A DNA stretch of 64,000 bases, taken from the NCBI GenBank assembly GCA_050015455.1, contig JBEKBJ010000002.1, positions 1,091 to 65,090 on the forward strand. The letters run 5' to 3'. Under the pieces are notes generated by a model. It saw only the letters and a program-made list of their open reading frames with translations, ran no database searches and was not told the origin of the DNA. This document shows, in pieces, positions 9,724-58,790 of the stretch (positions are counted from its first letter, which is position 1; every line of letters starts with the position of its first letter). The translations under genes and the position numbers were made by a program. Origin of the DNA: Candidatus Binatia bacterium (GTDB taxonomy: Bacteria; Desulfobacterota; Binatia; HRBIN30).

Positions 9724-10344
9724 TTACAAATGCCCGACACAGTCCAGCGCTTCCGCGTACCAGGCTTCGTGATCGCGCGCCAGAATATGGATCGAGCCGA
9801 GCGCAACACACAGCTGGCGACGGTGCACTTCGTCCACCCCGAGCAGCTCCGAGACAATGGAGCGGATCACGCCTTTGTGCAGCACGAACAGCAGCTCGCC
9901 CGTAGGCGCCTGCGCCAGGACTCGGTGCAGCGTGCGCGCCACCCGTTCATGGAAGTCACGGCTGGACTCGCCTCCGGGATACACGAATTCGCCATGGCGC
10001 ACTTGCCACTGCGCGTACAACGCCGGCTGCCGCTCCCGGATCTGTTCGGCGGTGAGCCCCTCCCACTCACCAAAATCGATCTCGTCGAACCCGGCCAGTG
10101 GCGTCACCGGCTGCGCACCGCCGGTAACGATCCGCGCCGCCTCGGCGCTGCGCGACAATGTGCTGCTGTAAGTGGCGACAAAGCTTTGCGAGATCAAGGC
10201 GCCGCGCACCCGTTGCATCTGGGCGCGCCCGAGTTGGCTCAGCGGCACGTCGGTGCGGCCGTAGTAACGGATGCTCGATTCGCCCTCGGTCTCACCGTGG
10301 CGCACGAGCGTCAGGCGCGTCGGCTCGCCGGCGCGTCGGCTCAC
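9724..10344 (-). CDS. histidine phosphatase family protein (phosphoglycerate mutase-like / CobC-like)
   Basis: LVRHGETE catalytic RHG motif, second His in FVLHKGVIR, ~200 aa. The GTG start overlaps the stop of the upstream HD gene by 4 nt. Confidence 0.8.
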   Translation of the reverse strand: MSRRAGEPTRLTLVRHGETEGESSIRYYGRTDVPLSQLGRAQMQRVRGALISQSFVATYSSTLSRSAEAARIVTGGAQPVTPLAGFDEIDFGEWEGLTAEQIRERQPALYAQWQVRHGEFVYPGGESSRDFHERVARTLHRVLAQAPTGELLFVLHKGVIRSIVSELLGVDEVHRRQLCVALGSIHILARDHEAWYAEALDCVGHL

Positions 10345-46163: not shown

Positions 46164-49100
46164 TCATTGAGCTTGCGCGGATGCAGGGGCGGACGCAGTT
46201 TCGTTGCTGTCGGGATGAACCGCCGGGTGCTCGGCTACCACACGGTCGATCACGCTGAACAACGTGCTGCTGTGGATCGGCTTGGCGATATACGCATCCA
46301 TGCCAGCAGCCAGGCACCGCTCCGCGTCGCCTTTCATCGCGTCCGCCGTCATCGCGACGATCGGCAGGTGTGCCCCATTTGTCTGCTCGCGCTCGCGGAT
46401 GGCCGCGGTGGCCTCGAAGCCGTCCATCTCCGGCATCTGCACATCCATAAGCACGACGTCAAACTCATATTGGGTGACTACGTCCACCGCCTGGCGACCG
46501 TTGGTAGCCAGCAGCACCGTATGGCCAGCTTTTTCCAGCAAGCGCACGGCGAACTTTTGGTTGATTGAGTTGTCTTCGACCACCAAGATGCGCAGCGGGC
46601 GTGCCGCCTTGCCGATCAGCTGTTCGTCAACCGACGCTGCTTGCTCGGCCTCCACCGCTGGGGCGCCCAGCACTCGCAAGATAGTGTTGAGCAGCTCCGA
46701 CTGCTTTATCGGTTTGGCCAGATACGCCGCCACACCAAGCTGGCGGCAGCGCGCCGCATCTCCCGGCAAGTCGGCTGAAGAGAGCATCATAATCGTTGCC
46801 CCGGATAGCTCCGGAGTTCGCTTGATCCGCGCCGCCAGCTCGAATCCATCCATGAGCGGCATCTGCGCGTCGAGCAGCACCAACGGGTACGGTTGCCCTA
46901 GCCCGGCCGCGCGCATTAGTTCGGTGAGCGCGGCGATGCCGTCGTCCGCCGTAGTGGCTCGCATGCGCCAATTGGTGAGCGTCTCGTAAAGGATGCGACG
47001 GTTGGTGGCGTTGTCGTCCACGACCAACGCCCGCAGCCCGAGCAGCGCGAGTGGCGCCACCGGAACCTTGCGCCTGACCGGCCGGCTCGAAAGTCCAAAG
47101 CGCGCAGTGAAGTGGAAGGTACTGCCGCGGCCGACCTGGCTGTCGGCCCAGATCCGTCCGCCCATCAGCTCCACCAGTTGCGTAGAGATGGCGAGACCCA
47201 GCCCCGTGCCCCCGTAACGCCGGGTGGTGGAGCTGTCGGCCTGCTCGAAGGGCTTGAAAATGGTTTTTAGCTTGTCAGCCGGTACGCCGATGCCGGTGTC
47301 CTTGATACTGAAGTGGAGCTGCACCGCGCCATCGGATTGCGCCTCGGTGTCAGCACTTATGATTACCTCGCCCCGTGCGGTGAACTTGATGGCGTTGCTC
47401 ACAAGATTGACCAGTACTTGCCGCAACCGGCCGGCATCGCCCACCAAGGCGTCCGGCACGTTCGGCGGAATGGCGTACGCCAGCTCCAGCCCTTTCTCGG
47501 CCGCGCGCACCGCCAGCGCTTTCGTGGCGTCCCCGACGCAGTCGCGTAGGGAGAAGTCACTCACATCGAGCTCGACCTTGCCCGCCTCCACCTTAGCGAA
47601 GTCGAGGATGTCGTTGATGACCCTCAGCAGCGAGTCAGCCGAGGACTTGACCATGGTGAGGTATTCCCGCTGCTCATCAGTGAGCGGGGTGTTGAGGGTG
47701 AGATCGGTCATGCCGACGATACCGTTCATCGGCGTGCGGATCTCGTGGCTCACGTTGGCGAGGAACTCGTTCTTGGCGCGGTTGGCGGCTTCCGCGGCAA
47801 CCATGGCTTGCTGCAGCTCCCGCTCGATGCGTTTGCGCTCGGTGATGTCGCGGCAGATCCCTTGCATCGCCACGGGGGCGCCGTCGCGGTAGAGGACGCG
47901 GGGGTTCACTTCAAGCGTGACCTCCCGACCTTTCTTTGTGGTGAGGTGAAGCTCGTAAGGTGACGCGCTGTCTCCCGCGATGCGGCGTTGCGTCTCCCAC
48001 GCAGCGCGCTCCTGGTCGCTTGCCGTGATAAGTTTCATGACGTCCATACCCTGCCATTCTTCGCGCGTGTACCCAGTAAGTTGCTCACCCGCTCGGTTCA
48101 CAGACTTAAGGAATCCGTCGAGGTCGTGCTCGAAGATGATGTCGTTGGCGTTCTCGAACAGCTCGCGATAGCGCTCCTCGCTGGCGCGCAGTGCCTCTTC
48201 GGCCTGCTTGCGCCGCGTGATGTCCTGAACGTGAACCAGAAAGCCCAGCGGGGCTCCGGCCGCATCATGCAGGATCGACACTATGGACAGGCCCCACACG
48301 ACATGCCCGCGCTTATGGATGTACCGCTTTTCCAACTGATACGAGGAAATCTCACCGGCAAGCAGTTGCCGCGTATAGTCCCACTGCGAGGGGAGATCGT
48401 CCGGATGGCTGATGTCGGCAAAGGTCGTGGCGAGCAGCTCGTCTTCCGAGTAGCCAAGCATCTCGCACAGCGAACGATTGACTTTCAAGTAACGACCTAA
48501 TGGCTTGGTCAAGCACATGCCGATCGGAGCATTGTCAAATGCGCCGCGGAAGCGCTCTTCGCTTTGGCGCAACGCCTCTTCGGCCCGCCGGCGCTCGGTG
48601 ACGTCGCGGACAACGCCGCGAAACCCACGCGGTTGCCCGGCGTCGTCCCGGATCAGGGAGGCGGACGCCTCGACAAGTCGCTTGGTCCCGTCCTTGCGAA
48701 TCATTTCCCAGTCGAAAAGCCTTTGTGGCTCGCCGGTTCGATACACGCGACTGAACACCTCGTACAACGGCGCGGCCTTCTCTGGGGCTGTGTATTGGCG
48801 GTAGTTCATCCCCAGTAACTCGTCGGCGGGGTACCCCGTTGCCCGGCACACCGAGTCATTGAAGAAGGTGAAATTGCCGGCCAGATCCACTTCGTAGTAG
48901 CCGTCCTGGATGCTCGTGAGGATGGTGCGGTATTTCTCCTCGCTCTCGCGCAGCGCGCCCTCCCTCTGCTTCCGCTCCCGGATGTCGTGTGCGATGAGGA
49001 CGGTGCCCACCCGGCTGCGATCGCGGTCCTGTAGAGGGGAGAGCGAGATTCTCACGGTGACCGGTTCGCCGCCCTTGGTGTGGAATACCATCTCTTCGTT

Positions 49101-50003
49101 GCGAGCCGTGCCCGGCGAGAGCAGCTGGCGAAGGTGTCGGGCGCCGCCCGCATCCGCGCCCGCCAAACACTCGATCCGCTCCCCGAGCAGCTCCTGCTCG
49201 GTGTAACCCAAGGTTACGCACAGCGCCTGATTGACGACGCGGATCCTGCCGTCCGCGTCACAGACCGCGAGCGGATCGGCCATGGTGCCGAGGATCTCGT
49301 TGGCGGCGAAGGCCGGAACAATGTCAACCAAGCGATAGCGCTGGATGGCGCGGGCCATCAAGGCGAGACAGACGAAAACCGGCAAGTACCCCAAGGGATA
49401 GAGCGGCACGCCGTAGCAAGGCAAATAGTCCAGCCCGCCCACATAGGCGATGCTGAACGCGATGAGCAGAGCGCGCAGCCTGTGCTTATGCGTGCCGGGC
49501 TCTGCTTTGCGGTACTCGATCCAGTAATCGCGCAGGTTGGCAAGCGCGAGCCCAAAGAAGAATACCAAGAAAGGGACGCCCAGCCAGCCATAGCGCGGAT
49601 AGTATCCCCACCAGTAGCGGTAGACGCCGGCGACCAGCACATCGCTGCCGAGGGCGGCCGCCGAGAAAAATGCGGACAGCAGCAAGCCGGCCCAAATGAG
49701 CCTCTTACGCCGGGCATAGATGCCCATCGTGACCACCGAAAACAGGTAGATGGTCGACGGAATGAAAGGACTGCCGAAAAGATTAAACCTTGCCCACCAT
49801 ATCGCGTACCCTTCGTTGGTGGCGCAATACATCGCCGCGAGCCCAGAGAGCCATACGCTGACCGCGAGCTGGATAAAGAGAAACGCCACGCTTACGCGCG
49901 AAGCGCGTTCACGGATGATGGCCGCTACGCCGACCAGGAGCAGTCCCAGAACGGTAACCGCCAGCGGGGCAGCGTGGATGTTGAAGCTATAATGCGGTGG
50001 CAT
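46164..50003 (-). CDS. hybrid sensor histidine kinase (7TM N-terminal domain, multiple PAS domains, HisKA, HATPase_c, two receiver domains)
   Basis: About 1280 aa from the ATG at 50003 (the ORF-track start at 50072 is GTG). About 7 N-terminal TM helices, at least 4 PAS/PAC segments, H-box SHEIRTPMNGI, HATPase G-boxes, and two CheY-like receivers (VVDDN.., VVEDN..). Confidence 0.85.
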   Translation of the reverse strand: MPPHYSFNIHAAPLAVTVLGLLLVGVAAIIRERASRVSVAFLFIQLAVSVWLSGLAAMYCATNEGYAIWWARFNLFGSPFIPSTIYLFSVVTMGIYARRKRLIWAGLLLSAFFSAAALGSDVLVAGVYRYWWGYYPRYGWLGVPFLVFFFGLALANLRDYWIEYRKAEPGTHKHRLRALLIAFSIAYVGGLDYLPCYGVPLYPLGYLPVFVCLALMARAIQRYRLVDIVPAFAANEILGTMADPLAVCDADGRIRVVNQALCVTLGYTEQELLGERIECLAGADAGGARHLRQLLSPGTARNEEMVFHTKGGEPVTVRISLSPLQDRDRSRVGTVLIAHDIRERKQREGALRESEEKYRTILTSIQDGYYEVDLAGNFTFFNDSVCRATGYPADELLGMNYRQYTAPEKAAPLYEVFSRVYRTGEPQRLFDWEMIRKDGTKRLVEASASLIRDDAGQPRGFRGVVRDVTERRRAEEALRQSEERFRGAFDNAPIGMCLTKPLGRYLKVNRSLCEMLGYSEDELLATTFADISHPDDLPSQWDYTRQLLAGEISSYQLEKRYIHKRGHVVWGLSIVSILHDAAGAPLGFLVHVQDITRRKQAEEALRASEERYRELFENANDIIFEHDLDGFLKSVNRAGEQLTGYTREEWQGMDVMKLITASDQERAAWETQRRIAGDSASPYELHLTTKKGREVTLEVNPRVLYRDGAPVAMQGICRDITERKRIERELQQAMVAAEAANRAKNEFLANVSHEIRTPMNGIVGMTDLTLNTPLTDEQREYLTMVKSSADSLLRVINDILDFAKVEAGKVELDVSDFSLRDCVGDATKALAVRAAEKGLELAYAIPPNVPDALVGDAGRLRQVLVNLVSNAIKFTARGEVIISADTEAQSDGAVQLHFSIKDTGIGVPADKLKTIFKPFEQADSSTTRRYGGTGLGLAISTQLVELMGGRIWADSQVGRGSTFHFTARFGLSSRPVRRKVPVAPLALLGLRALVVDDNATNRRILYETLTNWRMRATTADDGIAALTELMRAAGLGQPYPLVLLDAQMPLMDGFELAARIKRTPELSGATIMMLSSADLPGDAARCRQLGVAAYLAKPIKQSELLNTILRVLGAPAVEAEQAASVDEQLIGKAARPLRILVVEDNSINQKFAVRLLEKAGHTVLLATNGRQAVDVVTQYEFDVVLMDVQMPEMDGFEATAAIREREQTNGAHLPIVAMTADAMKGDAERCLAAGMDAYIAKPIHSSTLFSVIDRVVAEHPAVHPDSNETASAPASAQAQ

Positions 50004-50220
50004 GCTGCTCGGGCCTTTCGCTAAGTGAACCGGCGCCGGATCGCGTAGGAGATGCTGGCGAAGATGAGACACGGAGATCCATCAGCACGCAAGGGAGGTG
50101 CGGCACCAGGATGAGCAACGGGCTCGCGGCCGCTCGTTGGAGGGGCGGCTCGTTTTTATGCCGCCGGAGTTGTCGCCAGGTGCGTTGGATTGTCGGGGAG
50201 GGCATTCAACCTCGGCGACG

Positions 50221-50634
50221 CTAGGCAAACGCTTGTAACGTGCTCGTGAGGTTCTCGATCTCCGTTTCCAGGTCCGCCAGCGCCTGATCAACTTCCGCCC
50301 AATCACCCGTGCGGCCCATGAGCTGCAGCCGTTGCGCCGCAGCCACCGCCAGGTCGGCCGCGAAGTTGGCTACTGATCCCTTGAGAGAGTGGGCTGCCCG
50401 TGCCAGAGTGGTGCCGTCGCGCCGGCCGACGGCGTCACGTACGTCCGACAGCCGGGCTGGGCAGTCTCTCAGAAACAGCCCGACGACCTCGCGAAGCAGC
50501 TCGGTATCGCCGCCGAAGAGATCCAGGAGCAGACTAGCAGAACATTCCGCCTCCGGCTCTTGCGGTGCCAGATCTGTTGCACGTCTCCCGGCCGTGAATT
50601 CCGAGCCGGTTTCGAATGCGCTACTTCTCTCCAT
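50221..50634 (-). CDS. Hpt (histidine phosphotransfer) domain protein
   Basis: 137 aa. AHSLKGSVANF contains the conserved phospho-His. Confidence 0.8.
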   Translation of the reverse strand: MERSSAFETGSEFTAGRRATDLAPQEPEAECSASLLLDLFGGDTELLREVVGLFLRDCPARLSDVRDAVGRRDGTTLARAAHSLKGSVANFAADLAVAAAQRLQLMGRTGDWAEVDQALADLETEIENLTSTLQAFA

Positions 50635-50904
50635 TGCACAGCCTCTGCGATCTCAGGCTGTGCACATCGCGTGCCGCGGAGGCCCTTATGCGGGGCGCAT
50701 GCAGAGCCTCACCCACGGCGTGGGCCCAGTTCCGCTCGGTGGCGAATCGCATGACGGGTGATCATTGCGTGACGTCAGCCGCAGGTCGTGTCCTTTGCGG
50801 GCGCTCTTCTGGCGGCGTCCCGAATGGCGGCGTCCCGAAGCCTGTCCTGAGCGCAGTCGAAGGGGGCTCGTCCGCGGAAAATCGACACACTCTCCAACGG
50901 GCTG

Positions 50905-51288
50905 CTAGTCCCCGCGACGATTCGCGGGGAGGTACTTCCTGATCTCTTGAACGAGGTACGTCGCCGTAAATGGCTTCGAGATGTAACCGGTGCATCCCAC
51001 CCGCGACGCGCTCAGTCCCCCCCCGTCCCAGAGGTGGGCGGTCACCGCAATCACTGGGATGTCGCGGGTTGCAGGGTCCTGCCTCACCGCGGCGATGACA
51101 TCGTAGCCGGTCACTTGCGGCATTTCCAGATCGGTCAGCACGAGGTCGGGCTTGTGGGCCTTGACCTTGCGGATAGCGTCTTCACCTCCGTACCCGACCA
51201 TGACCTGGTAGCCCGCGTTGTTGAGCGCGTAGGTGATGAGCCTCATCGTGGCCGGGTCGTCTTCGACAACCAGAACGCTCGGCTTCAT
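50905..51288 (-). CDS. single-domain response regulator (receiver)
   Basis: VLVVEDD, phospho-acceptor D in VLTDLEMP, conserved K in YISKP. Confidence 0.9.
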   Translation of the reverse strand: MKPSVLVVEDDPATMRLITYALNNAGYQVMVGYGGEDAIRKVKAHKPDLVLTDLEMPQVTGYDVIAAVRQDPATRDIPVIAVTAHLWDGGGLSASRVGCTGYISKPFTATYLVQEIRKYLPANRRGD

Positions 51289-51538
51289 TCGTTTTGCACC
51301 CTATTGTTAGTATACCACATCATGCGCAGGTGATCATCTTTTCCCTTGAGCCGGCTGCGACGGGTTCTGGGCGACGCTTGTCACGGCTCTCGCCGGTGTT
51401 CTGTCACCGAGCGAAGCTGCGTGCGCACGACGGACACAACGAGAACTGGCAAAGGGCTCTGCTTCATGGGATAATGGTTGGCCTGGAAATGGGAGCGTCG
51501 TGAGCATCGGTCACTCTTGTGCGGGTGAGTGAAACACC

Positions 51539-52615
51539 ATGGCGGAAGTGTCCGAACCGCAGATCGATGGACCGAGCGTCGTCCTGGCTGAAGACAGCGA
51601 CGATCAGGCGTTGGTGATCACGCGGACGTTAGAGAAAGAGGGCTTCCGCGTGCGGCGAGAAGCATCGGCGCAAGGGCTTCTGAACAGCCTCAAGCGAGGT
51701 GCCGACGAGGTTGTCCTGCTCGATCTTGGCCTCCCCGACATGCACGGGCTGGAGGTGTTGCAGAAGATCGTTCGTTACAGCGGCGACATTCCGGTCATCG
51801 CCTTGACCGCTCTTGATGACATCAAGATTGTGGTGGGCGCGATTCGCATGGGGGCCTGGGACTACGTGGCCAAACGAGCCGACCGATCTCATCTCAAGGA
51901 GTTGCCGGATGTGATTCGGCGCAGCCAAGACCGGCGACGACTGCTGCAACACCAGAGTCTCGCCCTTCGCCGTCTGAATGACAATGTCCGCGAGCGGATA
52001 AGGGCGATTGAGAAGTGCGCCGATGAGTTGGCGGCAAGACACGTGACGGGGGGAGGGCAGCCTGTTGTCGGCGAAATTCGCGACAGCACATCCGGCATTC
52101 TGGCGTTGGTATCGGACTTCGTTGTGGCGCGAGCGACGGAAACGGGTGCCCTCTCGCTAAATCACCAGCGTCTATCGGTTGGCGCCGTGGTCGGGCGCGT
52201 GACGTCGCAGCAGAAGGCCACGATAACGGCCAAGAACATCACTCTCGACGTGCACACGGCCGATGGCCTCCCGGAAATCAATGCCGATCAGGGTCTCATG
52301 GAGCACGCTGTAACGAACCTGCTCCTCAATGCGACCAGTTCGACGCCAGCTGGGGGCACCGTGACCGTGTCACTCGAAGGCGATGCTGACAGGCTGGTCC
52401 TCAGCGTCGCGGATACCGGTAAAGGCATTACGGAATCCGAGCTTCAGTCGATCTTCGAGAAGTCCTGGCGGCTCCGGGCTGCCTCGCGGACAAGCGACCT
52501 CAGACTCTTCGTGACCAAGGCCATCGTCGAAGCGCACGGCGGAGAGATCTGCGTCGAAGGCGCGCCGGGCAGCGGTTCTACCTTCAAAGTCCGCCTGCCG
52601 TTGGGCACCAGCTAA
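51539..52615 (+). CDS. receiver-histidine kinase fusion (REC-HisKA-like-HATPase_c)
   Basis: N-terminal receiver (VVLAEDSDD, VLLDLGLPDMHG) and C-terminal HATPase_c (LLLNATSST, DTGKGI). Confidence 0.85.
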   Translation: MAEVSEPQIDGPSVVLAEDSDDQALVITRTLEKEGFRVRREASAQGLLNSLKRGADEVVLLDLGLPDMHGLEVLQKIVRYSGDIPVIALTALDDIKIVVGAIRMGAWDYVAKRADRSHLKELPDVIRRSQDRRRLLQHQSLALRRLNDNVRERIRAIEKCADELAARHVTGGGQPVVGEIRDSTSGILALVSDFVVARATETGALSLNHQRLSVGAVVGRVTSQQKATITAKNITLDVHTADGLPEINADQGLMEHAVTNLLLNATSSTPAGGTVTVSLEGDADRLVLSVADTGKGITESELQSIFEKSWRLRAASRTSDLRLFVTKAIVEAHGGEICVEGAPGSGSTFKVRLPLGTS

Positions 52616-52712
52616 AGACGCGTAGTGCGGCGCGCTGCGCGCGTGTCCCCCGGTGCGTTGACAAATTGCATGTCTGTGCATATAAGCATCAGAGTCGAGG
52701 TGGGAGCAGATC

Positions 52713-53060
52713 ATGGCGATCCCGAACCGCACAACCCGTGAGAAGGCCGCGCGCGAACTGACGGATCTCCTCGATTCCAAGCTGTTCAAGGCGCTGTGCG
52801 AGCTGGCGCGGGTCGAGATCGTGAGGTTCCTGACCGTGGAAGGGCGGTCGGATGTGAGCACGATCGCCAAGCATTTCCCGCAGCATGCCTCGGTGGTGTC
52901 GCGGCACCTCGCCGTCTTGCACGACGCCGGCGTCTTGCGGCGGCGTAAGGATGGCCGGCACGTCTATTTCGAGGTGGACGCCGCCTCGATGGTCGGCCGC
53001 ATGGACAAGATCCTCGGTCGGTTTCGCAGGATCGTCCCGCTCTGCTGTCCGCGGAAGTGA
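52713..53060 (+). CDS. arsR: ArsR/SmtB family metalloregulator
   Basis: 115 aa. Winged HTH (ALCELARVEIVRFL...VSTIAKHFPQHASVVSRHLAVLHDAGVL) and a C-terminal vicinal CC typical of As(III)-sensing ArsR. Confidence 0.85.
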   Translation: MAIPNRTTREKAARELTDLLDSKLFKALCELARVEIVRFLTVEGRSDVSTIAKHFPQHASVVSRHLAVLHDAGVLRRRKDGRHVYFEVDAASMVGRMDKILGRFRRIVPLCCPRK

Positions 53061-53122
53061 TCTCTTGTGCGGCAACAATTGCATATCTGTGCACGGATAC
53101 AATAAGGGAAAGGACGAACTTT

Positions 53123-53983
53123 ATGGAAGACGTGGATCGACGTGAGGATCCGGAGGCGACGCGCACCACGGTGCGCGAGCGATATGGCCGCGTCGCGGAA
53201 GGGTCGACGGGCTGCTGCGGTGCGCCCGACGGGCACGCGGAGCAGAGCCGGCGCCTCGGTTATACCGATGCCGAGATGGCGGCGGTGCCGCAGGGCGCCG
53301 ACCTCGGCCTTGGCTGCGGCAACCCGACGGCGCTGGCGTCGCTGCAGCCTGGGCAGACCGTGCTCGACCTTGGCTCGGGCGCCGGGTTCGATGCGTTCCT
53401 GGCGGCGCGAACGGTAGGCGCCGATGGGCACGTGATCGGCGTCGACATGACCCCGGCCATGATTGCCAAGGCGCAAGAGAACGCCCGCACGGCAGGTATC
53501 AGCAACACCGAGTTCCGGCTCGGGACGGTCGAGGAATTGCCGGTCGAGAGTGCGAGCATCGACGTCGTGATCTCCAACTGCGTGATCAACCTGTCGCCCG
53601 ACAAGCCGCGCGTGTTCCGCGAAGCCTTTCGCGTCCTCAAGCCCGGCGGCCGCTTGTTGGTCTCCGACATCGTGCTGCGCGCGCCGCTGCCGGAGCGCGT
53701 GCGGGCTAGCGTGGAGGCCTACGTCGGGTGCATTGCCGGCGCGGCCCTCATCGACGACTACCTGCAGGCGATCGGCGCTGCCGGCTTCACCGCCGTGCAG
53801 GTGATGAAGGAAACGGACGCCTCGGCACTGCTGTCCGCGGACTGTGCCTGCGTGTCCGACCCGCTCGTCGCCGACATCATTGCCGCGATCGGGGACGCCG
53901 AGGAGCTGCGCCATCTCGTCACCAGCGTCGTCAGCATTACCGTGAGCGCGCGCAAGCGTGACAGGCGTGGGTTGGCGGTCTGA
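53123..53983 (+). CDS. arsM: arsenite S-adenosylmethionine methyltransferase
   Basis: ATG MEDVD. The N-terminal CCG cysteine pair, the SAM motif VLDLGSGAGFD, NCVINL, and downstream Cys residues match the ArsM/AS3MT family. Directly downstream of arsR. Confidence 0.85.
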   Translation: MEDVDRREDPEATRTTVRERYGRVAEGSTGCCGAPDGHAEQSRRLGYTDAEMAAVPQGADLGLGCGNPTALASLQPGQTVLDLGSGAGFDAFLAARTVGADGHVIGVDMTPAMIAKAQENARTAGISNTEFRLGTVEELPVESASIDVVISNCVINLSPDKPRVFREAFRVLKPGGRLLVSDIVLRAPLPERVRASVEAYVGCIAGAALIDDYLQAIGAAGFTAVQVMKETDASALLSADCACVSDPLVADIIAAIGDAEELRHLVTSVVSITVSARKRDRRGLAV

Positions 53984-54008
53984 GTGTCGAAAGGGGGAGG
54001 CCATTGGC

Positions 54009-54686
54009 ATGCAGCAACCGGAAAGGCGAACGATCAAGTTCTCGGCGGAGGTGAAAGACATCGAGGTGCTCCTCGAGTATTCGCGACAGGTGGGCGCCGA
54101 AAGAGCTCTAGCGGTCAAGGTCGCGGACCTGACTTTCATGGAATCGAGGCGGCGCAAATGCGAAGTGCCCGCTTGCGCTTCGTACCTCACGAACCTGCAC
54201 TGTCCTCCGAAAGCCCCGGCCGCCAAAAGGATGGAATCGTGCCTTCCGGGCTCGTACGAGTACGGCATCCTCGCCGTCATGTACAGTCCGGAACAGGATG
54301 TGGTGTTTCCGAATCAAGTGCGTGGCGGCGGCAAGTGGTCGATCAAGACCAGCAAGCTGGTCGAACGCATCGAATCCCGTGCGCAGGCCCTGGGGTACTA
54401 CAAGGCGATGGGCTTCACCTGCGGCCCGTGCGCCTTGTGCGGCATGTGGACGGAACCGTGGGTCATGAAAGTGCTGGTGCAAGAGGACGCCCGCAAGTGC
54501 GCCGTGCTCGACGGCAAGATCTGCCTGTTGCATCGTCGTTCGCGACCGTCGCCCGAAGCCTGTGGCATCAATCTCATCGACTTCATTCGCGACGTAGGGC
54601 TCGCACCGAAGCACCTGGTCTTCCCGGAAGTGTCACCCGAGGCCGTCCCACGATGCCCGTGGTACGCTTTTGTCCTCGTTGCCTGA
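54009..54686 (+). CDS. Cys-rich putative metal-binding protein (DUF2284-like), paralogue 1
   Basis: ATG with a GGGGGAGG Shine-Dalgarno. Conserved Cys pattern KCEVPACASYLTNLHCPP ... GFTCGPCALCGMW. 225 aa. Confidence 0.5.
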   Translation: MQQPERRTIKFSAEVKDIEVLLEYSRQVGAERALAVKVADLTFMESRRRKCEVPACASYLTNLHCPPKAPAAKRMESCLPGSYEYGILAVMYSPEQDVVFPNQVRGGGKWSIKTSKLVERIESRAQALGYYKAMGFTCGPCALCGMWTEPWVMKVLVQEDARKCAVLDGKICLLHRRSRPSPEACGINLIDFIRDVGLAPKHLVFPEVSPEAVPRCPWYAFVLVA

Positions 54687-54725
54687 TCCGAACGTCAACC
54701 ACGGCACGAAAGGAGAATGCAGAGA

Positions 54726-55460
54726 ATGACAGAGCGGAGCCAGAGCCGCGTCACGCTGACCCCACGGCAGTTCGGAGCGGAAAGAACGGATCGGCCCGCG
54801 GTGAGTATCAAAGCCAAGGCCGACAGGGCAGATCTCGATAAGCTTGCGACGTTTGCAAAGGGTGTCGGCGCCATCGACGCGTTGGCCGCACCCACGAATG
54901 TGCTTGCCGTCAGCGAGGTTATGCGTCTGAAGTGCCAGATCCCAGCATGCTGGGGGTTCAACGCGAGTCCGTTTTGCCCACCGCGCAGCGCGACCGCGGA
55001 GGAGATGAAGGCCATTGTCGGGGAGTGTAACTGGACGCTGTTGCTAGCCATTCCTCGTCCGGCGGCGGCGACCGGCTCGGCAGCTGAGCTGTTTGAACAC
55101 TCGAACAGAGTGAAGGAGGTCGTGGGAAGAACGGAGGTCGAGGCGCAGTATGACGGCTTGCTCGATACCATGGGATTTGTCGGTGGCCCCTGCACGCTCT
55201 GCGGCATGTTTAGTGAGGAGTGGATCCAGGAAATGAAGAAAGGAGCGGACGTTCCGTACTGCCCATTAGTCCAACGGACGGCGCCCCTCTGTCTCCATGC
55301 TTATCACGGCAGGCCGGCCGCCCAAGCTGTGGGTTTCGACATGTACCTGACGGCGAAACGTGTCGGCTGGGAGAAGCACCTCTATCCGCCGGAACCGGTG
55401 GCCGATGGCCGCATGGACTGGCCGTGTTTGCCCGGCGTCTACCCCTTGCTCATCAAGTAG
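54726..55460 (+). CDS. Cys-rich putative metal-binding protein (DUF2284-like), paralogue 2
   Basis: Same Cys pattern (KCQIPACWGFNASPFCPP ... GFVGGPCTLCGMF). Start at the second ATG, which has a well-spaced AAAGGAG Shine-Dalgarno. Confidence 0.5.
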   Translation: MTERSQSRVTLTPRQFGAERTDRPAVSIKAKADRADLDKLATFAKGVGAIDALAAPTNVLAVSEVMRLKCQIPACWGFNASPFCPPRSATAEEMKAIVGECNWTLLLAIPRPAAATGSAAELFEHSNRVKEVVGRTEVEAQYDGLLDTMGFVGGPCTLCGMFSEEWIQEMKKGADVPYCPLVQRTAPLCLHAYHGRPAAQAVGFDMYLTAKRVGWEKHLYPPEPVADGRMDWPCLPGVYPLLIK

Positions 55461-55536
55461 CGACTCGATGCAGGCCGGTGGATTCTCAGTACGCACTCAG
55501 TCGGCGTAGCTTTCTGCGCATCAGCGGCCCTGCCAC

Positions 55537-55610
55537 CCTCACGGATTCTCATCCGAGCCATGGTTGGCGGCGTCTTCCTCTCGGGAGGGAATCCAGAAGT
55601 TTCTCTTCCC
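55537..55610 (+). pseudogene. degraded duplicate of the doxX 5' end
   Basis: About 70 nt ~93% identical to 44496-44570 (tccgagccatggttggcggcgtcttcctctcgg...tccagaagtt.ctcttcccc), with a 1-nt indel and no downstream ORF. Confidence 0.5.
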
Positions 55611-55830
55611 CGCTGCCCTGGGAGTAGGGTGACAAGAGGGTGACAAGAGGTTGACGTTGGCCGAAGGTTTGAGTACGTTCGGAATCACTGCGGCGGTGGG
55701 GTCCGCCCCTAACCATCCAGGCTGAGCGCGAAGCCAGCTCGGGTCAATGACCCCTACTCGGTGAAACGCGGGTGGGGGTTTTTCGTAAAGCCTCTACCCG
55801 GAAGGGTGTGAGGTTTTTTTGTTGGCGACG

Positions 55831-57612
55831 ATGGAACCAACCGCGGCGGAACCGGAGATCGCCACCTACGGTGCGCTCAAGCAGGCGTTTCAGGCAGCGG
55901 TTTCTCAGCTGACCGGGCTGCTGTCTCATGGCACCTGGAGCCCACTGGCGCAGCGACTCGCTCCAATCGCGGATAAGCTGGCCCGCAACCGCTTCCATCT
56001 CGCTGTCCTCGGGCAGTTCAAGCGCGGCAAGACGACCTTCATCAACGCCCTGCTCGGTGCCGACATCCTGCCCACCGGCATCGTACCGCTCACCTCGATC
56101 GTCACGCTGATCGAGTACGGCAGCGAGCCGGGAGCGACGGTGCATTTCCGTAACCACCGCACGCAAGTCATCGCACTCGACGAGGTGGCCGCTTACGTCA
56201 CTGAGCGCGACAATCCGCAGAACAAGAAGAACGTCGCCCGTGTCGAAGCGACCTATCCGGCTGCGATCCTGCGCGACGGCGTCATCCTCATCGACACCCC
56301 GGGCATCGGCTCCACCTACGAGCACAACACCGACGTCGCGTATCAGTTCCTGCCGCAAGTGGACGCCGCCATCTTCGTGGCCTCGGTCGATCCGCCGCTC
56401 AGCCAGGCGGAGAAGGATTTCTTGATCGCCATTCGTGAATACGCGGCCAAGCTGTTCTTCGTCCTCAACAAGATCGACTACGTCAGCGAGACGGAGCGAC
56501 GCGAGTTGCTGGATTTCCTGCACACCGTGCTGGCAACCGAGCTGGGCATCGTCGAGCCGAAGATTTTTCCGCTCTCGGCGAAGCGCGCGCTGGCCGCGGC
56601 GCTGCATGGGGGAGAGGATGGTGGCCTGCCAGCGTTTCGCGCCACGCTCGACCACTTTCTGCTGCACGAGAAAGGGAGCGTGGCACTCACCGCCGCAACG
56701 GGGTCGGCCCTGCGGCTGGCAGGGGAAGCGCGCTTCCTGCTCGAGGTTGAACAGCGGGCGTTGGCGACACCGCTCGAAGAGCTGGAGGAGAAGCTCGCCG
56801 AGTTCGACCGCTTGCGGACACGGGCCGAGCAAGACCACCGCGACTTCCAGCACCTGCTGAAAGCGGAAGCGCAACAGTTGATGAGTATACTCGATGAAGA
56901 ACTGCCGGCGCTCAAAACGGAACAGGTTCCCGTGCTCGAAGCGGCGCTGCGCGCCTTTGCCGACAGCCATGCAGAGCTCAAAGGACGCCATCTCGGGTAC
57001 GCCTTGCAGGACGAGCTGAAGCGGGTGTTGATCGATCATTTCGAGGGCTGGCGGCGTGCCAAGGAGCAGCGGCTCGATGCGGATTTCCGCGCTCTGTCCG
57101 GCCGCTTCGTGGAAGCGGCGAACCAGATCATTGCGCGCGTGGTGGAATTGTCGGCGGCGCTGTTCAATTTGCCGCCGGTGCCGCTGGCGAGCGTCGAGGG
57201 GCTCAGCACGGAGAGCCAGCTGTACTACATGGTGGGCGAGGACCCGGTGCTGCTCAGCATCGAGCCGATCTACTTTTCGACCTTGCTGCCCGGGCGCTTC
57301 ACGCGCCGCTTCGTCGTCGGCGACGCGCTCAAGCACGTGCCGATCGAGGCGGAGCGGAACTGTGGCCGGTTACGCTACGACTTCCTGACGCGCATCGAAC
57401 AGAGCGTGAACCGCTTCGCGCAACAATTGGCGGAGCGTATCCACCTCACCGTGGGCAGCATCCGCCGCGCCATCGAGGCCGGAACCGTCGAACGCGCACA
57501 CAGCGGAGAGCAGGCGGCGGCAAGGCAAGCGGCAATCGACGGGCAGTTGGCGACGCTGGTCGCCGTGGACGCACGCCTGGATGCGATCCGCACGCAGGCG
57601 GCAACCTTGTGA
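55831..57612 (+). CDS. bacterial dynamin-like GTPase
   Basis: P-loop GQFKRGKTTFINALLG, switch-region T, DTPG, and NKID motifs, followed by a long helical stalk. The ORF-track start at 55819 is TTG; first ATG at 55831. Confidence 0.8.
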   Translation: MEPTAAEPEIATYGALKQAFQAAVSQLTGLLSHGTWSPLAQRLAPIADKLARNRFHLAVLGQFKRGKTTFINALLGADILPTGIVPLTSIVTLIEYGSEPGATVHFRNHRTQVIALDEVAAYVTERDNPQNKKNVARVEATYPAAILRDGVILIDTPGIGSTYEHNTDVAYQFLPQVDAAIFVASVDPPLSQAEKDFLIAIREYAAKLFFVLNKIDYVSETERRELLDFLHTVLATELGIVEPKIFPLSAKRALAAALHGGEDGGLPAFRATLDHFLLHEKGSVALTAATGSALRLAGEARFLLEVEQRALATPLEELEEKLAEFDRLRTRAEQDHRDFQHLLKAEAQQLMSILDEELPALKTEQVPVLEAALRAFADSHAELKGRHLGYALQDELKRVLIDHFEGWRRAKEQRLDADFRALSGRFVEAANQIIARVVELSAALFNLPPVPLASVEGLSTESQLYYMVGEDPVLLSIEPIYFSTLLPGRFTRRFVVGDALKHVPIEAERNCGRLRYDFLTRIEQSVNRFAQQLAERIHLTVGSIRRAIEAGTVERAHSGEQAAARQAAIDGQLATLVAVDARLDAIRTQAATL

Positions 57613-58015
57613 GGGAGATGCAAATGAGCAAGCTGGAGAGTTGCCCTCCAGGGCCATCGTGGGGCTTCCGTGGGCGCAGGTTTCGGTCACCGCCGGGCTC
57701 GTCTACGCTGCCGTCCTGAGCTTGGCCGGCGCCGTTTTGATCCCACGGGTGCGTGCCCCGCTCCTGTCGCCGCCCGAGCGTCCGCTCGATTGCCAGCAGC
57801 GCGTTCATAAGTTGCCGCGGCATTAGATCCCTTTCCGCTTCGACCGCGCAATTCAGAAACCAGCCCCTCCCGCGGACGTCCACTGGCCCCGTTTCGTAGA
57901 GCGACGATTGCCGGGTCACGCGGACGCCATGCGCTCCGAGCGCTTCAATGGCCCGCGCGATATTCTGCGCGCGGGCTCCCAGGTTCGATCCCAACGATAG
58001 ATACACAGTCTTCAT
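57446..58015 (-). CDS. folK: 2-amino-4-hydroxy-6-hydroxymethyldihydropteridine pyrophosphokinase (HPPK), C-terminus divergent/possibly truncated
   Basis: The N-terminal 95 aa match HPPK (VYLSLGSNLG, ETGPV, LNCAVEAE, LLAIERTLGR). After that the WGPRTLDLDIL / LPHP motifs are absent, and the ORF runs ~165 nt antisense into the dynamin gene. Confidence 0.5.
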   Translation of the reverse strand: MKTVYLSLGSNLGARAQNIARAIEALGAHGVRVTRQSSLYETGPVDVRGRGWFLNCAVEAERDLMPRQLMNALLAIERTLGRRQERGTHPWDQNGAGQAQDGSVDEPGGDRNLRPRKPHDGPGGQLSSLLICISLTRLPPACGSHPGVRPRRPASPTARRLPLALPPPALRCVRVRRFRPRWRGGCCPR

Positions 58016-58105
58016 CGAGGAGCGAACATTTTAGTATTGCGCGTGCCCGCCAGTTGACAGTCAGCACCCGAGGGGCGAAGGATTCGCGACATCCGGGAGG
58101 CGCCA

Positions 58106-58597
58106 ATGGCAGACCCAAAGAAACTGACGTGGCTGCGCGTAGATCAGCGAGAGTTGATACATGCTCTTCGAACCACGGTCGCAGCGGTGGCTTCCTTGCT
58201 GATTGCCCGCTGGTGCCGGTTGCCGGAGTCATACTGGGCCGCCATTGCAACCATGATCGTCATGCAATCAACGCTTGGCGCGGCATGGACCGTCTCGAAA
58301 GATCGCTTGGCTGGAACTGCGCTAGGCGCCGCTGCGGGAGGGTTGCTGGCAACCTATGCGGCGCAAAACGTAGCCGTGTTTGGCGCCGGGCTGTTGGCGT
58401 TGGGAGTGCTGTGCGCCATCCTGCGCATCGAGCGAAGCGCGTATCGCTATGCGGGAATCACGTTGGTCATTGTCATGCTGGTTGCGCGCGCTCAGCCCGC
58501 CTGGATCATCGCCATTCACCGCTTCATCGAAATCTCGGTTGGAATCGCGGTCGGATTGATTGTCACCGCGCTCTGGCCCGAATACCGCTCTCAGTGA
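58106..58597 (+). CDS. FUSC-like / aromatic-acid-exporter-family small membrane protein
   Basis: 163 aa, 4-5 TM, similar in pattern to the FUSC_2 inner-membrane domain. Confidence 0.45.
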   Translation: MADPKKLTWLRVDQRELIHALRTTVAAVASLLIARWCRLPESYWAAIATMIVMQSTLGAAWTVSKDRLAGTALGAAAGGLLATYAAQNVAVFGAGLLALGVLCAILRIERSAYRYAGITLVIVMLVARAQPAWIIAIHRFIEISVGIAVGLIVTALWPEYRSQ

Positions 58598-58790
58598 GTA
58601 TTGCCCAGCGGTTGAAACCGCGGCTACAAAGCACCAAGCATGTCCTGAGCCTGTCGAAGGGCCCACCGGAGCTTGCCCTGAGCATCTCCTGCGTGGCGCA
58701 CCGTTGGCGTTTCGGCAGGCGTCAAGGGTCCAAGTCCCATCGCGTCCTGACGGTTGCCTTTGTATATACGATAGCATACGCTGCCCACTA

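Follow-up and report, generated by a model that had tools for sequence, protein, structure and literature searches.

An arsR-arsM operon carrying a tandem pair of DUF2284 genes in a Candidatus Binatia bacterium

A 64-kb stretch of a Candidatus Binatia genome (64,000 nucleotides of contig JBEKBJ010000002.1, hereafter the window) carries at positions 52713-55460, on the + strand, four co-oriented open reading frames (ORFs) that encode an ArsR/SmtB repressor, the arsenite S-adenosylmethionine (SAM) methyltransferase ArsM and two DUF2284 paralogues, here called D1 and D2. The locus is an arsRM operon to which a widely distributed pair of uncharacterised accessory genes is attached, and the link of this pair to arsenic is lineage-restricted. 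D1-D2 probably serves as a redox helper and not as a component specific to arsenic. The explanation we put forward, tentatively, is that the two proteins act as a heterodimeric redox partner of ArsM-like methyltransferases, within an ArsR-controlled operon that captured a pre-existing two-gene module.

The arsR-arsM-D1-D2 locus

The genes and candidate regulatory sites of the locus are the following:

52658..52686, + strand: candidate sigma-70 promoter of arsR, TTGACA, 17-nt spacer, TATAAG (read by eye from the sequence)
52665..52680, + strand: ArsR operator candidate 1, ATTGCATGTCTGTGCA, core TGCA-N6-TGCA, within the promoter spacer (recurrence and conservation)
52713..53060, + strand: arsR, ArsR/SmtB-family repressor, 115 aa (NF033788, 62 bits against a cutoff of 55)
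53078..53093, + strand: ArsR operator candidate 2, ATTGCATATCTGTGCA, in front of arsM and closely followed by a TACAAT hexamer at 53098-53103 (recurrence and conservation)
53123..53983, + strand: arsM, As(III) SAM methyltransferase, 286 aa (NF008823, 339.5 bits against a cutoff of 263)
54009..54686, + strand: D1, DUF2284 paralogue 1, 225 aa (PF10050, 76.8 bits against a cutoff of 25)
54726..55460, + strand: D2, DUF2284 paralogue 2, 244 aa (PF10050, 67.7 bits against a cutoff of 25)

The first-pass annotation of this DNA, made from its letters alone, had described arsR and arsM followed at short distance by two co-oriented paralogues of about 230 aa, and domain models and alignments bear out both the layout and the identities. 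The arsR product also matches the winged-helix domain HTH_5 (PF01022, 27.4 bits against 22), and D1 and D2 share 31% identity over 213 aa (E 8e-28). The arsM ORF opens at 53057 and that of D1 at 53958; their likelier starts are the ATG at 53123 and position 54009, preceded by the ribosome-binding sites AAGGGAAAGGA and GGGGGAGG, respectively, and an alternative start of D2 at 54717 would yield a protein of 247 aa. No in-frame TGA occurs within the ORFs of the locus. The two paralogues are identical to P0001 and P0011, both named Candidatus Binatia. Intergenic gaps measure 62 nt (arsR-arsM), 25 nt (arsM-D1) and 30-39 nt (D1-D2), and a terminator scan revealed no terminator-like site on the + strand between the four genes. 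Because the 25-nt and 30-39-nt gaps are free of such structures, arsM, D1 and D2 probably share one transcript, inducible by As(III), by methylarsenite (MAs(III)) or by both. The absence of arsB, acr3 and arsC claimed by the first reading agrees with our data: none of the genes called within +-10 kb of the locus encodes an ars transporter or reductase domain, and a crude six-frame motif scan of the window, which is a weak test, returned no ArsC, Acr3 or ArsA signature.

Judged by its sequence, the window ArsM is a standard As(III) SAM methyltransferase with predicted methylation activity. It covers positions 3-269 of the 272 positions of NF008823, matches PF13847 at 136.7 bits and displays the SAM motif DLGSGAG. 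Its cysteines C31/C32 (GCCG), C65 (GLGCGNP), C152 (SNCVINL) and C202 (YVGCIAGA) presumably correspond to the CmArsM sites, as judged by motif rather than by alignment of the two proteins. The four conserved ArsM cysteines are Cys44, 72, 174 and 224 in CmArsM, where the N-terminal Cys pair is needed for the first methylation step only (PMC6138428). The orthologue encoded by a related cassette described below (L025 5131-5973; 332 bits with NF008823) lacks the N-terminal CC, equivalent to Cys44, and keeps the other three conserved cysteines.

Regulation of the locus was approached through its upstream sequence and through 123 fetched loci, the pair loci among them having been found by scans of GTDB genomes and JGI metagenomes and by exact look-ups. 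The arsR promoter, which is close to consensus, is conserved in L025 and slightly degraded in a deletion variant, L120; our sigma-70 scan demanded a T at the last -10 position, and this promoter, whose -10 hexamer ends in G, was thus unlisted. The first-pass annotation had pointed to the sequence upstream of 52713 as the place to look for an ArsR operator, and a candidate does lie there, at 52665-52680 within the arsR promoter, with a second copy before arsM in the 62-nt arsR-arsM gap. The 16-mer ATTGCAT(G/A)TCTGTGCA shared by both sites occurs exactly twice in the 64-kb window, and none of 100 shuffles (0/100) gave at least two matches. A 14-nt candidate operator, TGCATnnnTGTGCA, is found upstream of both arsR and arsM and is conserved in the cassette of a second genome: in L025-type cassettes the operator core upstream of arsR is conserved, and the site upstream of arsM is present in inverted orientation. 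The core TGCATNNNTGTGCA is confined to seven of the 123 loci, all of which bear arsR-arsM and contain two copies each, and is missing from the other 116. The TGCA-N6-TGCA dyad is therefore put forward as a predicted ArsR operator, which probably governs arsR as well as the arsM-D1-D2 block.

ArsR itself has just three cysteines, Cys29 and the vicinal pair Cys111-Cys112 (PLCCPRK), which ends 3 residues from the C-terminus. This C-terminal CCP is kept in three ArsR-like proteins, namely those of the window and of L025 and a distant protein adjoining the D1-D2 module of L031. Known As(III) sites comprise Type 1 (Cys32/34/37 of R773), Type 2 (Cys95/96/102 of AfArsR) and Type 3 (Cys15/16/55 of CgArsR), and the MAs(III)-selective SpArsR has a Type 2-like vicinal pair without the third cysteine (PMC11868830). 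On sequence, Cys111-112 of the window ArsR resembles the C-terminal site of AfArsR minus its third Cys, i.e., the SpArsR arrangement.

Distribution of the D1-D2 pair

The four genes form a unit that occurs in two genomic contexts. An arsR-arsM-D1-D2 cassette with 75% DNA identity to window 52737-55460 and a D1 that is 83% identical was found in L025-27 and L037; it is flanked there by enoyl-CoA hydratase and HpcH/HpaI aldolase genes, and in the window by two-component genes and a dynamin-like GTPase gene.

The closest relative, L120/L121, encodes a D1 that is 93% identical and shares the upstream two-component genes at ~89% DNA identity, yet has no arsR or arsM. Positions 9881-9933 of L120 match the arsR promoter/operator as far as the last base in front of the ATG (window 52657-52712), positions 9934-9961 match the last seven arsR codons (window 53040-53067), and positions 9960-10007 match the last arsM codons together with the ribosome-binding site and start of D1 (window 53968-54015). 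Since these junction scars match the flanking ends of arsR and arsM, the two genes were removed from L120 by deletions of 327 bp and 900 bp, which left D1-D2 behind the former arsR promoter. A 2-nt TG microhomology marks the 900-bp deletion, and the L120 operator carries three substitutions. We considered and rejected L120 as the state before an arsRM insertion, given that the last codons of both genes are retained. The ratio of nonsynonymous to synonymous substitution rates (dN/dS) for L120 is 0.49 for D1 and 0.12 for D2, and 0.36-0.61 for neighbouring genes.

Beyond these relatives, a D1-type gene directly followed by a D2-type gene was found in 30 loci representing ~20 distinct lineages, with hosts in the Binatia, the Syntrophorhabdaceae, the Actinomycetota (including Ca. 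Solincola) and unclassified metagenome-assembled genomes, hence in at least three phyla. In every case, the first gene product is nearer to D1 (42-47% identity) than to D2 (26-29%) and the second is nearer to D2 (49-55%) than to D1 (29-31%). These identities show that the D1/D2 duplication is old and that the order D1 then D2 has stayed fixed, and on this basis the products may well work as a heteromer.

The commonest architecture of these pairs is TetR-D1-D2 with nothing else conserved; a gene for a TetR-family regulator stands directly upstream of D1-D2 in L002, L005, L006, L009, L031, L033/34, L035, L039 and L040. ArsM-like class-I methyltransferases of types other than that of the window also lie near pairs; they score below the ArsM cutoff and lack the ArsM cysteines. 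The methyltransferase gene precedes TetR-D1-D2 in L006, L039 and L040 and follows D1-D2 in L009 and L123 (methyltransferases 73% identical). L031 encodes a Trm112-fused methyltransferase, its methyltransferase, glycyl-radical enzyme and ArsR genes standing in this order beside TetR-D1-D2, and ArsR-like genes encoding a C-terminal CCP are divergent from the TetR gene in both L009 and L031. Genes for a C_GCAxxG_C_C protein, an A subunit of the dimethyl sulfoxide (DMSO)/selenate-reductase family (DmsA-like) and a DmsB-like protein are found in L008 and, after D1-D2, in L036.

Two further observations concern these modules. A long AT-rich palindrome, TTAATTAATTGAACGAACATTCAATTAATTAA, lies at 4585-4622 of L031 just upstream of the TetR gene of the TetR-D1-D2 module and is a likely TetR operator candidate. 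Glycyl-radical enzymes (PFL2/3 subfamily, ~780-800 aa) are encoded beside D1-D2 in the unrelated contigs L008 (3483-10875) and L031 (241-6771), and no radical-SAM activase gene is visible in the fetched sequence of either contig, where flanks are short. That D1-D2 replaces the activase in these contigs was entertained and rejected, there being two loci only, no radical-SAM motif and short flanks.

Upstream of arsR in the window, at 46164-52615, lies a two-component cluster that is syntenic in L120. It encodes a multi-PAS hybrid histidine kinase of 1,302 aa on the minus strand, together with an Hpt protein, a stand-alone receiver and a protein of 358 aa that combines a receiver with HATPase_c and has no HisKA match in Pfam. 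The ~3.1 kb directly downstream of D2 (55467-58596) are missing from the otherwise syntenic L120, in which homology resumes at window 58597-58667, and the D1-D2 locus is thus situated at a synteny breakpoint. This segment holds a riboswitch-like element, a dynamin-like GTPase gene, an HPPK gene (minus strand) and a FUSC-family ORF. Within the 358-nt gap after D2, the 11-mer GGTGACAAGAG occurs twice in tandem (55628-55649, + strand), with an incomplete third copy, GTTGAC, behind it. A full-length match to the fluoride riboswitch aptamer RF01734 at 55683-55763 (+ strand) is sub-threshold, with 27.2 bits against a gathering cutoff of 34 (E 3e-4 on 10 kb, 1e-5 on 370 nt). It is followed by a hairpin with a T-run at 55795-55818 and stands upstream of the dynamin-family GTPase ORF (55819-57612), an unusual downstream gene for a fluoride riboswitch.

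The possible role of D1 and D2

The cysteine clusters that the first-pass annotation had named, C-x4-C-x8-C-PP and G-x-C-x-L-C-G-M, are exact in both proteins, as K-C-x4-C-x8-C-P-P (54156-54209 in D1, 54930-54983 in D2) and G-P-C-x-L-C-G-M. Seven cysteines, arranged as C-x4-C-x8-C-P-P, C-x2/3-C and C-x7-C, are invariant in a sample of 50 DUF2284 sequences, as is a Glu, and an R-P-x2-E-x2-G motif is nearly so. These residues are C51, C56, C65-P-P, E122, C141, C144, C164, C172 and the R179-P180 motif in D1; D2 has the same seven cysteines, and both proteins also have the Glu and the RP motif. Because the same cysteines are kept across DUF2284 members encoded in very different contexts, the conservation favours a cofactor site, structural or redox, over a site for As(III) or a metalloid substrate.

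How different these contexts are is apparent from the wider family. Word-indexed homology searches, one of them with a profile, had a reach confined to the D1/D2 subfamily, and the broad family alignment (A7) was too divergent for scanning loci; an exhaustive HMMER search gave the size of the family, without gene context, as 1,283 cluster representatives at E<=1e-3 (clusters at 50% identity). Seventeen of them match at E<=1e-30, which marks the D1/D2 subfamily. The best 150 of the 1,283 representatives are 84-312 aa long, mostly ~170-290 aa, and apparently stand-alone. Among the fetched loci, neighbours of distant single-copy DUF2284 genes are heterogeneous (uvrB, nitroreductase, thiamine pyrophosphate enzyme, thioesterase), with no arsenic link seen.

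Some of these single-copy neighbourhoods recur. Actinomycetota/Thermoleophilia loci L012-L024 (e.g., L024 907-6615) and L064 (1683-4524) have a single-copy DUF2284 gene, whose product is 23-27% identical, directly after uvrB, in a conserved and housekeeping-like rpsA-coaE-SLT-uvrB neighbourhood. Five metagenome contigs (L048, L057, L069, L074 and L103; e.g., L074 954-2361) carry a PF00881 nitroreductase gene directly upstream of a single-copy DUF2284 gene. Two loci of Promethearchaeota (Asgard) associate a single DUF2284 gene with corrinoid proteins: in L007 (3729-7322) it is followed by genes for a B12-binding corrinoid protein and the corrinoid activase RACo, and in L010 (1344-4032) it stands beside genes for MtmB, which is a monomethylamine methyltransferase, and for a B12-binding protein. 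The two arrangements hint at a connection between DUF2284 and corrinoid methyl transfer.

AlphaFold2 (AF2) models of both proteins show an alpha+beta core (D1: predicted local distance difference test (pLDDT) 72, predicted template-modelling score (pTM) 0.75; D2: pLDDT 77, pTM 0.80). Foldseek searches of the PDB with the two models returned top lists made up almost entirely of nitroreductase-fold proteins, none of them significant: PceA, a reductive dehalogenase (RDH) complex and NpRdhA, then QueG and YdjA for D1 (E 1e-3 to ~1, TMq up to 0.48), and QueG, NpRdhA, NfsB-type nitroreductases and FbiB-C for D2 (E at least 0.16). A nitroreductase-like core with a Cys-ligated metal cofactor is accordingly to be regarded as a lead, not a result. 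The adjacency of nitroreductase and DUF2284 genes in the five contigs above is notable given this weak likeness of the models. In classical nitroreductases, dimerisation is obligatory and the cofactor sits between the two subunits, a habit that would fit a D1:D2 heterodimer.

AhpD, a thiol-redox domain, and DUF2284 are both known as fusion partners of ArsM, and these partners point to redox help. The fusion family NF041536, 'arsenite methyltransferase/DUF2284 domain selenoprotein', is listed next to the ArsM/AhpD fusion in a 2026 review that credits Haft and Tolstoy 2025 for ArsM/DUF2284 and its sibling families NF041537 (ArsM/AhpD) and NF045648 (MbdU) (PMC13188914). Residues 28-254 of the window ArsM align to positions 6-232 of NF041536 and residues 27-215 of D1 to positions 273-438; D2 also aligns to the C-terminal half. 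Scores are 178.7 bits for ArsM, 27.8 for D1 and 23.4 for D2, against a cutoff of 575. The first-pass view that this is not one of the known ars gene sets consequently needs tempering: the ArsM-DUF2284 link has been catalogued as a fusion, albeit an uncharacterised one. As far as the searched literature goes, the heteropair as separate tandem genes, its spread as a module in its own right, the operator and the natural arsRM-deletion variant appear to be undescribed.

Our favoured proposal of a redox partner builds on the need of ArsM for a disulfide reductant in each cycle, on the fusions of ArsM to AhpD and DUF2284, and on electron-demanding neighbours. ArsM catalysis oxidises the enzyme's own cysteines to disulfides, which have to be re-reduced each cycle, and thioredoxin is the usual proposed reductant (PMC6138428). 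The redox company kept by DUF2284 includes the corrinoid protein with RACo (L007), MtmB (L010), glycyl-radical enzymes and DmsAB-like proteins with C_GCAxxG_C_C. As(III) or MAs(III) would relieve repression by ArsR, so that ArsM and D1:D2 are co-induced. D1 and D2 would pair up in the cytoplasm as a heterodimer whose alpha+beta core is nitroreductase-like, and the seven invariant Cys and the Glu of each subunit would hold a cofactor, most likely Fe-S. This heterodimer may deliver electrons to ArsM-like methyltransferases or reduce their disulfide or As(V) intermediates, and in the disulfide-cascade cycle of ArsM it would take the job usually given to thioredoxin or glutathione. Elsewhere, the same module is linked to TetR regulators and to further methyltransferases or to redox enzymes. 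With one common hidden Markov model (HMM), a methyltransferase gene was found near 13 of the 30 pair loci (six architectures, two of them with true ArsM) and near 1 of 92 single-copy DUF2284 loci, a contrast that is inflated and biased because the HMM was built from these same methyltransferases. The recurrence of four different methyltransferase types beside D1-D2 is real despite this bias.

Besides the HMM bias, several points weigh against a redox partnership with ArsM. True ArsM adjoins D1-D2 in just two of the ~20 lineages, that of the window and its 83% relative. The L120 pair is intact and, with a D2 dN/dS of 0.12, under purifying selection, which indicates that it has value without ArsM; further close relatives without arsRM have D1 identities of 79% (L122, which shows a RimK-like gene upstream of D1 and no deletion scars), 72% (L028) and 67% (L033/34, with TetR upstream). 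Co-transcription of arsM-D1-D2 and binding of ArsR to the operator are themselves what we infer from sequence. The structural side is fragile as well: the Cys loops are modelled at pLDDT <50, including a low-confidence first Cys loop, and the fold matches are statistically weak, with Foldseek E values of 1e-3 to 0.2 and TM scores of 0.25-0.48. A D1/D2 profile found no sequence match among all PDB chains, hhalign of the nitroreductases (PF00881) with DUF2284 profile A7 gave a probability of 0.2% (from a shallow, 5-sequence template alignment), and the ferredoxin-type motif CX2CX2CX3CP is absent from D1/D2. Pfam likewise gave no domain besides PF10050. Lastly, the searchable literature holds no functional study of, or experimental datum on, any DUF2284 protein, only two incidental mentions, in keeping with the first reading that the two paralogues have no assigned function.

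The main rival makes D1-D2 a self-sufficient redox or detoxifying enzyme that acts on a small-molecule substrate of its own, is recruited by ArsR here or TetR elsewhere and is co-expressed with ArsM without touching it; this reading owes its rank to the survival of D1-D2 without ArsM, usually under TetR control. We consider it possible, if rather doubtful. The intact pair left after the loss of arsRM in L120, the bare TetR-D1-D2 architecture, the linkage to DMSO/selenate-reductase-family and C_GCAxxG_C_C genes in L008 and L036, and the enzyme-like fold matches (nitroreductase, RdhA, QueG) all agree with such an enzyme, and candidate substrates would be methylated or oxidised metalloid or chalcogen species or another thiol-reactive compound. 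The data, however, point to no nameable substrate, and the ArsM/DUF2284 fusions and the four types of ArsM-like methyltransferases adjoining the pair suggest a direct partnership instead.

It is unlikely that the adjacency is a historical accident, i.e., that the function of D1-D2 is unrelated to arsenic or methylation and that arsRM merely came to lie upstream of it in two related lineages. Such an accident would account for the two ArsM-linked lineages out of ~20, for the relatives whose D1 is 93%, 79%, 72% or 67% identical and which lack arsRM, for the synteny breakpoint at the locus and for single-copy DUF2284 genes in unrelated contexts such as the uvrB neighbourhoods. Yet the four genes moved or persisted jointly in two contexts at 75% DNA identity, the arsM-D1-D2 gaps are tight and free of terminators, independent ArsM/DUF2284 gene fusions exist and other methyltransferases recur beside the pair. 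The idea of the first-pass annotation that D1 and D2 are components of an arsenic-methylation island comes out divided along the same lines: the unity of the cassette, the operator, the fusion and the ArsM-like methyltransferases adjoining pairs speak for it, but most pairs are without ArsM and L120 keeps D1-D2 without arsRM.

A bolder form of the redox-partner proposal appears quite unlikely as it stands. D1-D2 would be an unrecognised heterodimeric branch of the nitroreductase-fold metallo-redox enzymes (RdhA, QueG, CblC). In anaerobes it would be dedicated to ArsM-like metalloid methyltransferases as a subunit that delivers electrons or acts as reductase independently of thioredoxin, or else the methylated metalloid intermediates would be its own substrates for reduction. 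If true, such a heterodimeric nitroreductase-fold ArsM reductase would be a new accessory component of arsenic methylation and the first function for DUF2284.

An ArsD-like role, in which D1 and D2 would be thiol-rich metallochaperones or sequestering proteins that bind As(III)/MAs(III) and exchange the metalloid with ArsM, is very unlikely. The many cysteines, with vicinal-type spacings among them, and the ArsR-controlled operon could be read in this way. However, the seven Cys and the Glu are invariant in the 50-sequence sample and the wider family occurs in non-arsenic contexts (Asgard corrinoid clusters, uvrB loci, TetR modules), the predicted fold is an enzyme-like alpha+beta core and not a small chaperone, and D1-D2 is retained without ArsM. 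Of the roles first proposed from the sequence, arsenic binding or chaperoning is therefore disfavoured, since cysteines invariant across non-arsenic contexts fit a cofactor site, and the redox role lives on within the redox-partner proposal. We give least credence to D1-D2 as a corrinoid-dependent RdhA/QueG/CblC-like enzyme for methyl handling or reductive C-metalloid cleavage, e.g., anaerobic demethylation of methylarsenicals: the top structural matches are B12/Fe-S enzymes and the Asgard DUF2284 genes neighbour B12-binding protein, RACo and MtmB genes, but the fold matches score weakly, a cobalamin-binding motif is absent, the window has no linked cobalamin gene, demethylation alongside ArsM would be a futile cycle, and the linked loci are only two, both encoding distant relatives (28-32% identity).

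In anoxic settings such as paddy soils and sediments, the methylation of arsenic is of environmental importance. To our knowledge, the source of reducing power for ArsM is not established where thioredoxin and glutathione are not the donors. The window locus, the NCBIfam ArsM/DUF2284 fusion and the methyltransferase-linked D1-D2 modules together offer a testable handle on DUF2284, and the arsRM-deletion variant L120 and a well-defined candidate operator make the system easy to dissect. Should D1-D2 prove to be a generic redox module, the result would still be of use for annotation: metagenome surveys ought not to score the pair as an arsenic gene.

Relation to known systems

The locus resembles known arsRM operons such as ArarsRMC of Arsenicibacter rosenii in having arsM directly after arsR and an operator in the arsR promoter, and induction by As(III)/MAs(III) would be expected here as well (PMC11868830). 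Unlike ArarsRMC, it has no arsC, acr3 or arsB, two DUF2284 genes follow arsM and a second copy of the candidate operator precedes arsM. The repressors also differ: ArArsR has a Cys41/80/82 site, whereas the window ArsR has the C-terminal vicinal Cys pair and Cys29.

The NF041536 fusion likewise couples ArsM and DUF2284 domains, and the window ArsM and D1 align to its two halves. The window genes, in contrast, are separate, encode two DUF2284 paralogues instead of one domain and lack selenocysteine, and by their sequences D1 and D2 are no more than distantly related to the fused DUF2284 domain. The TetR-D1-D2 modules encode orthologues of D1 (42-67% identity to the window protein) and D2 (49-64%), whose gene order and seven cysteines are those of the window pair. 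These modules are under TetR instead of ArsR and have no true ArsM, although some are accompanied by other class-I methyltransferases, glycyl-radical enzymes or an ArsR-like (CCP) gene.

Among structurally characterised proteins, PceA (4ur3), NpRdhA (4ras) and QueG (5d0a) are the best, though weak, matches of the AF2 models, and both groups are Cys-rich, with a cofactor being predicted for D1/D2. DUF2284 proteins are nevertheless shorter than RdhA and QueG (~200-250 aa against 370-700 aa), share no sequence similarity with them and lack their CX2CX2CX3CP motifs; RdhA and QueG are larger, single-chain folds, whereas D1-D2 may work as a heterodimer. As for thioredoxin and glutathione, the reductants of ArsM (PMC6138428), the role proposed for D1-D2 would be similar, namely regenerating the ArsM cysteines or reducing pentavalent intermediates. 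Having neither a thioredoxin fold nor a CxxC in a thioredoxin context, D1-D2 would differ from them as a reductant that depends on a metal cofactor.

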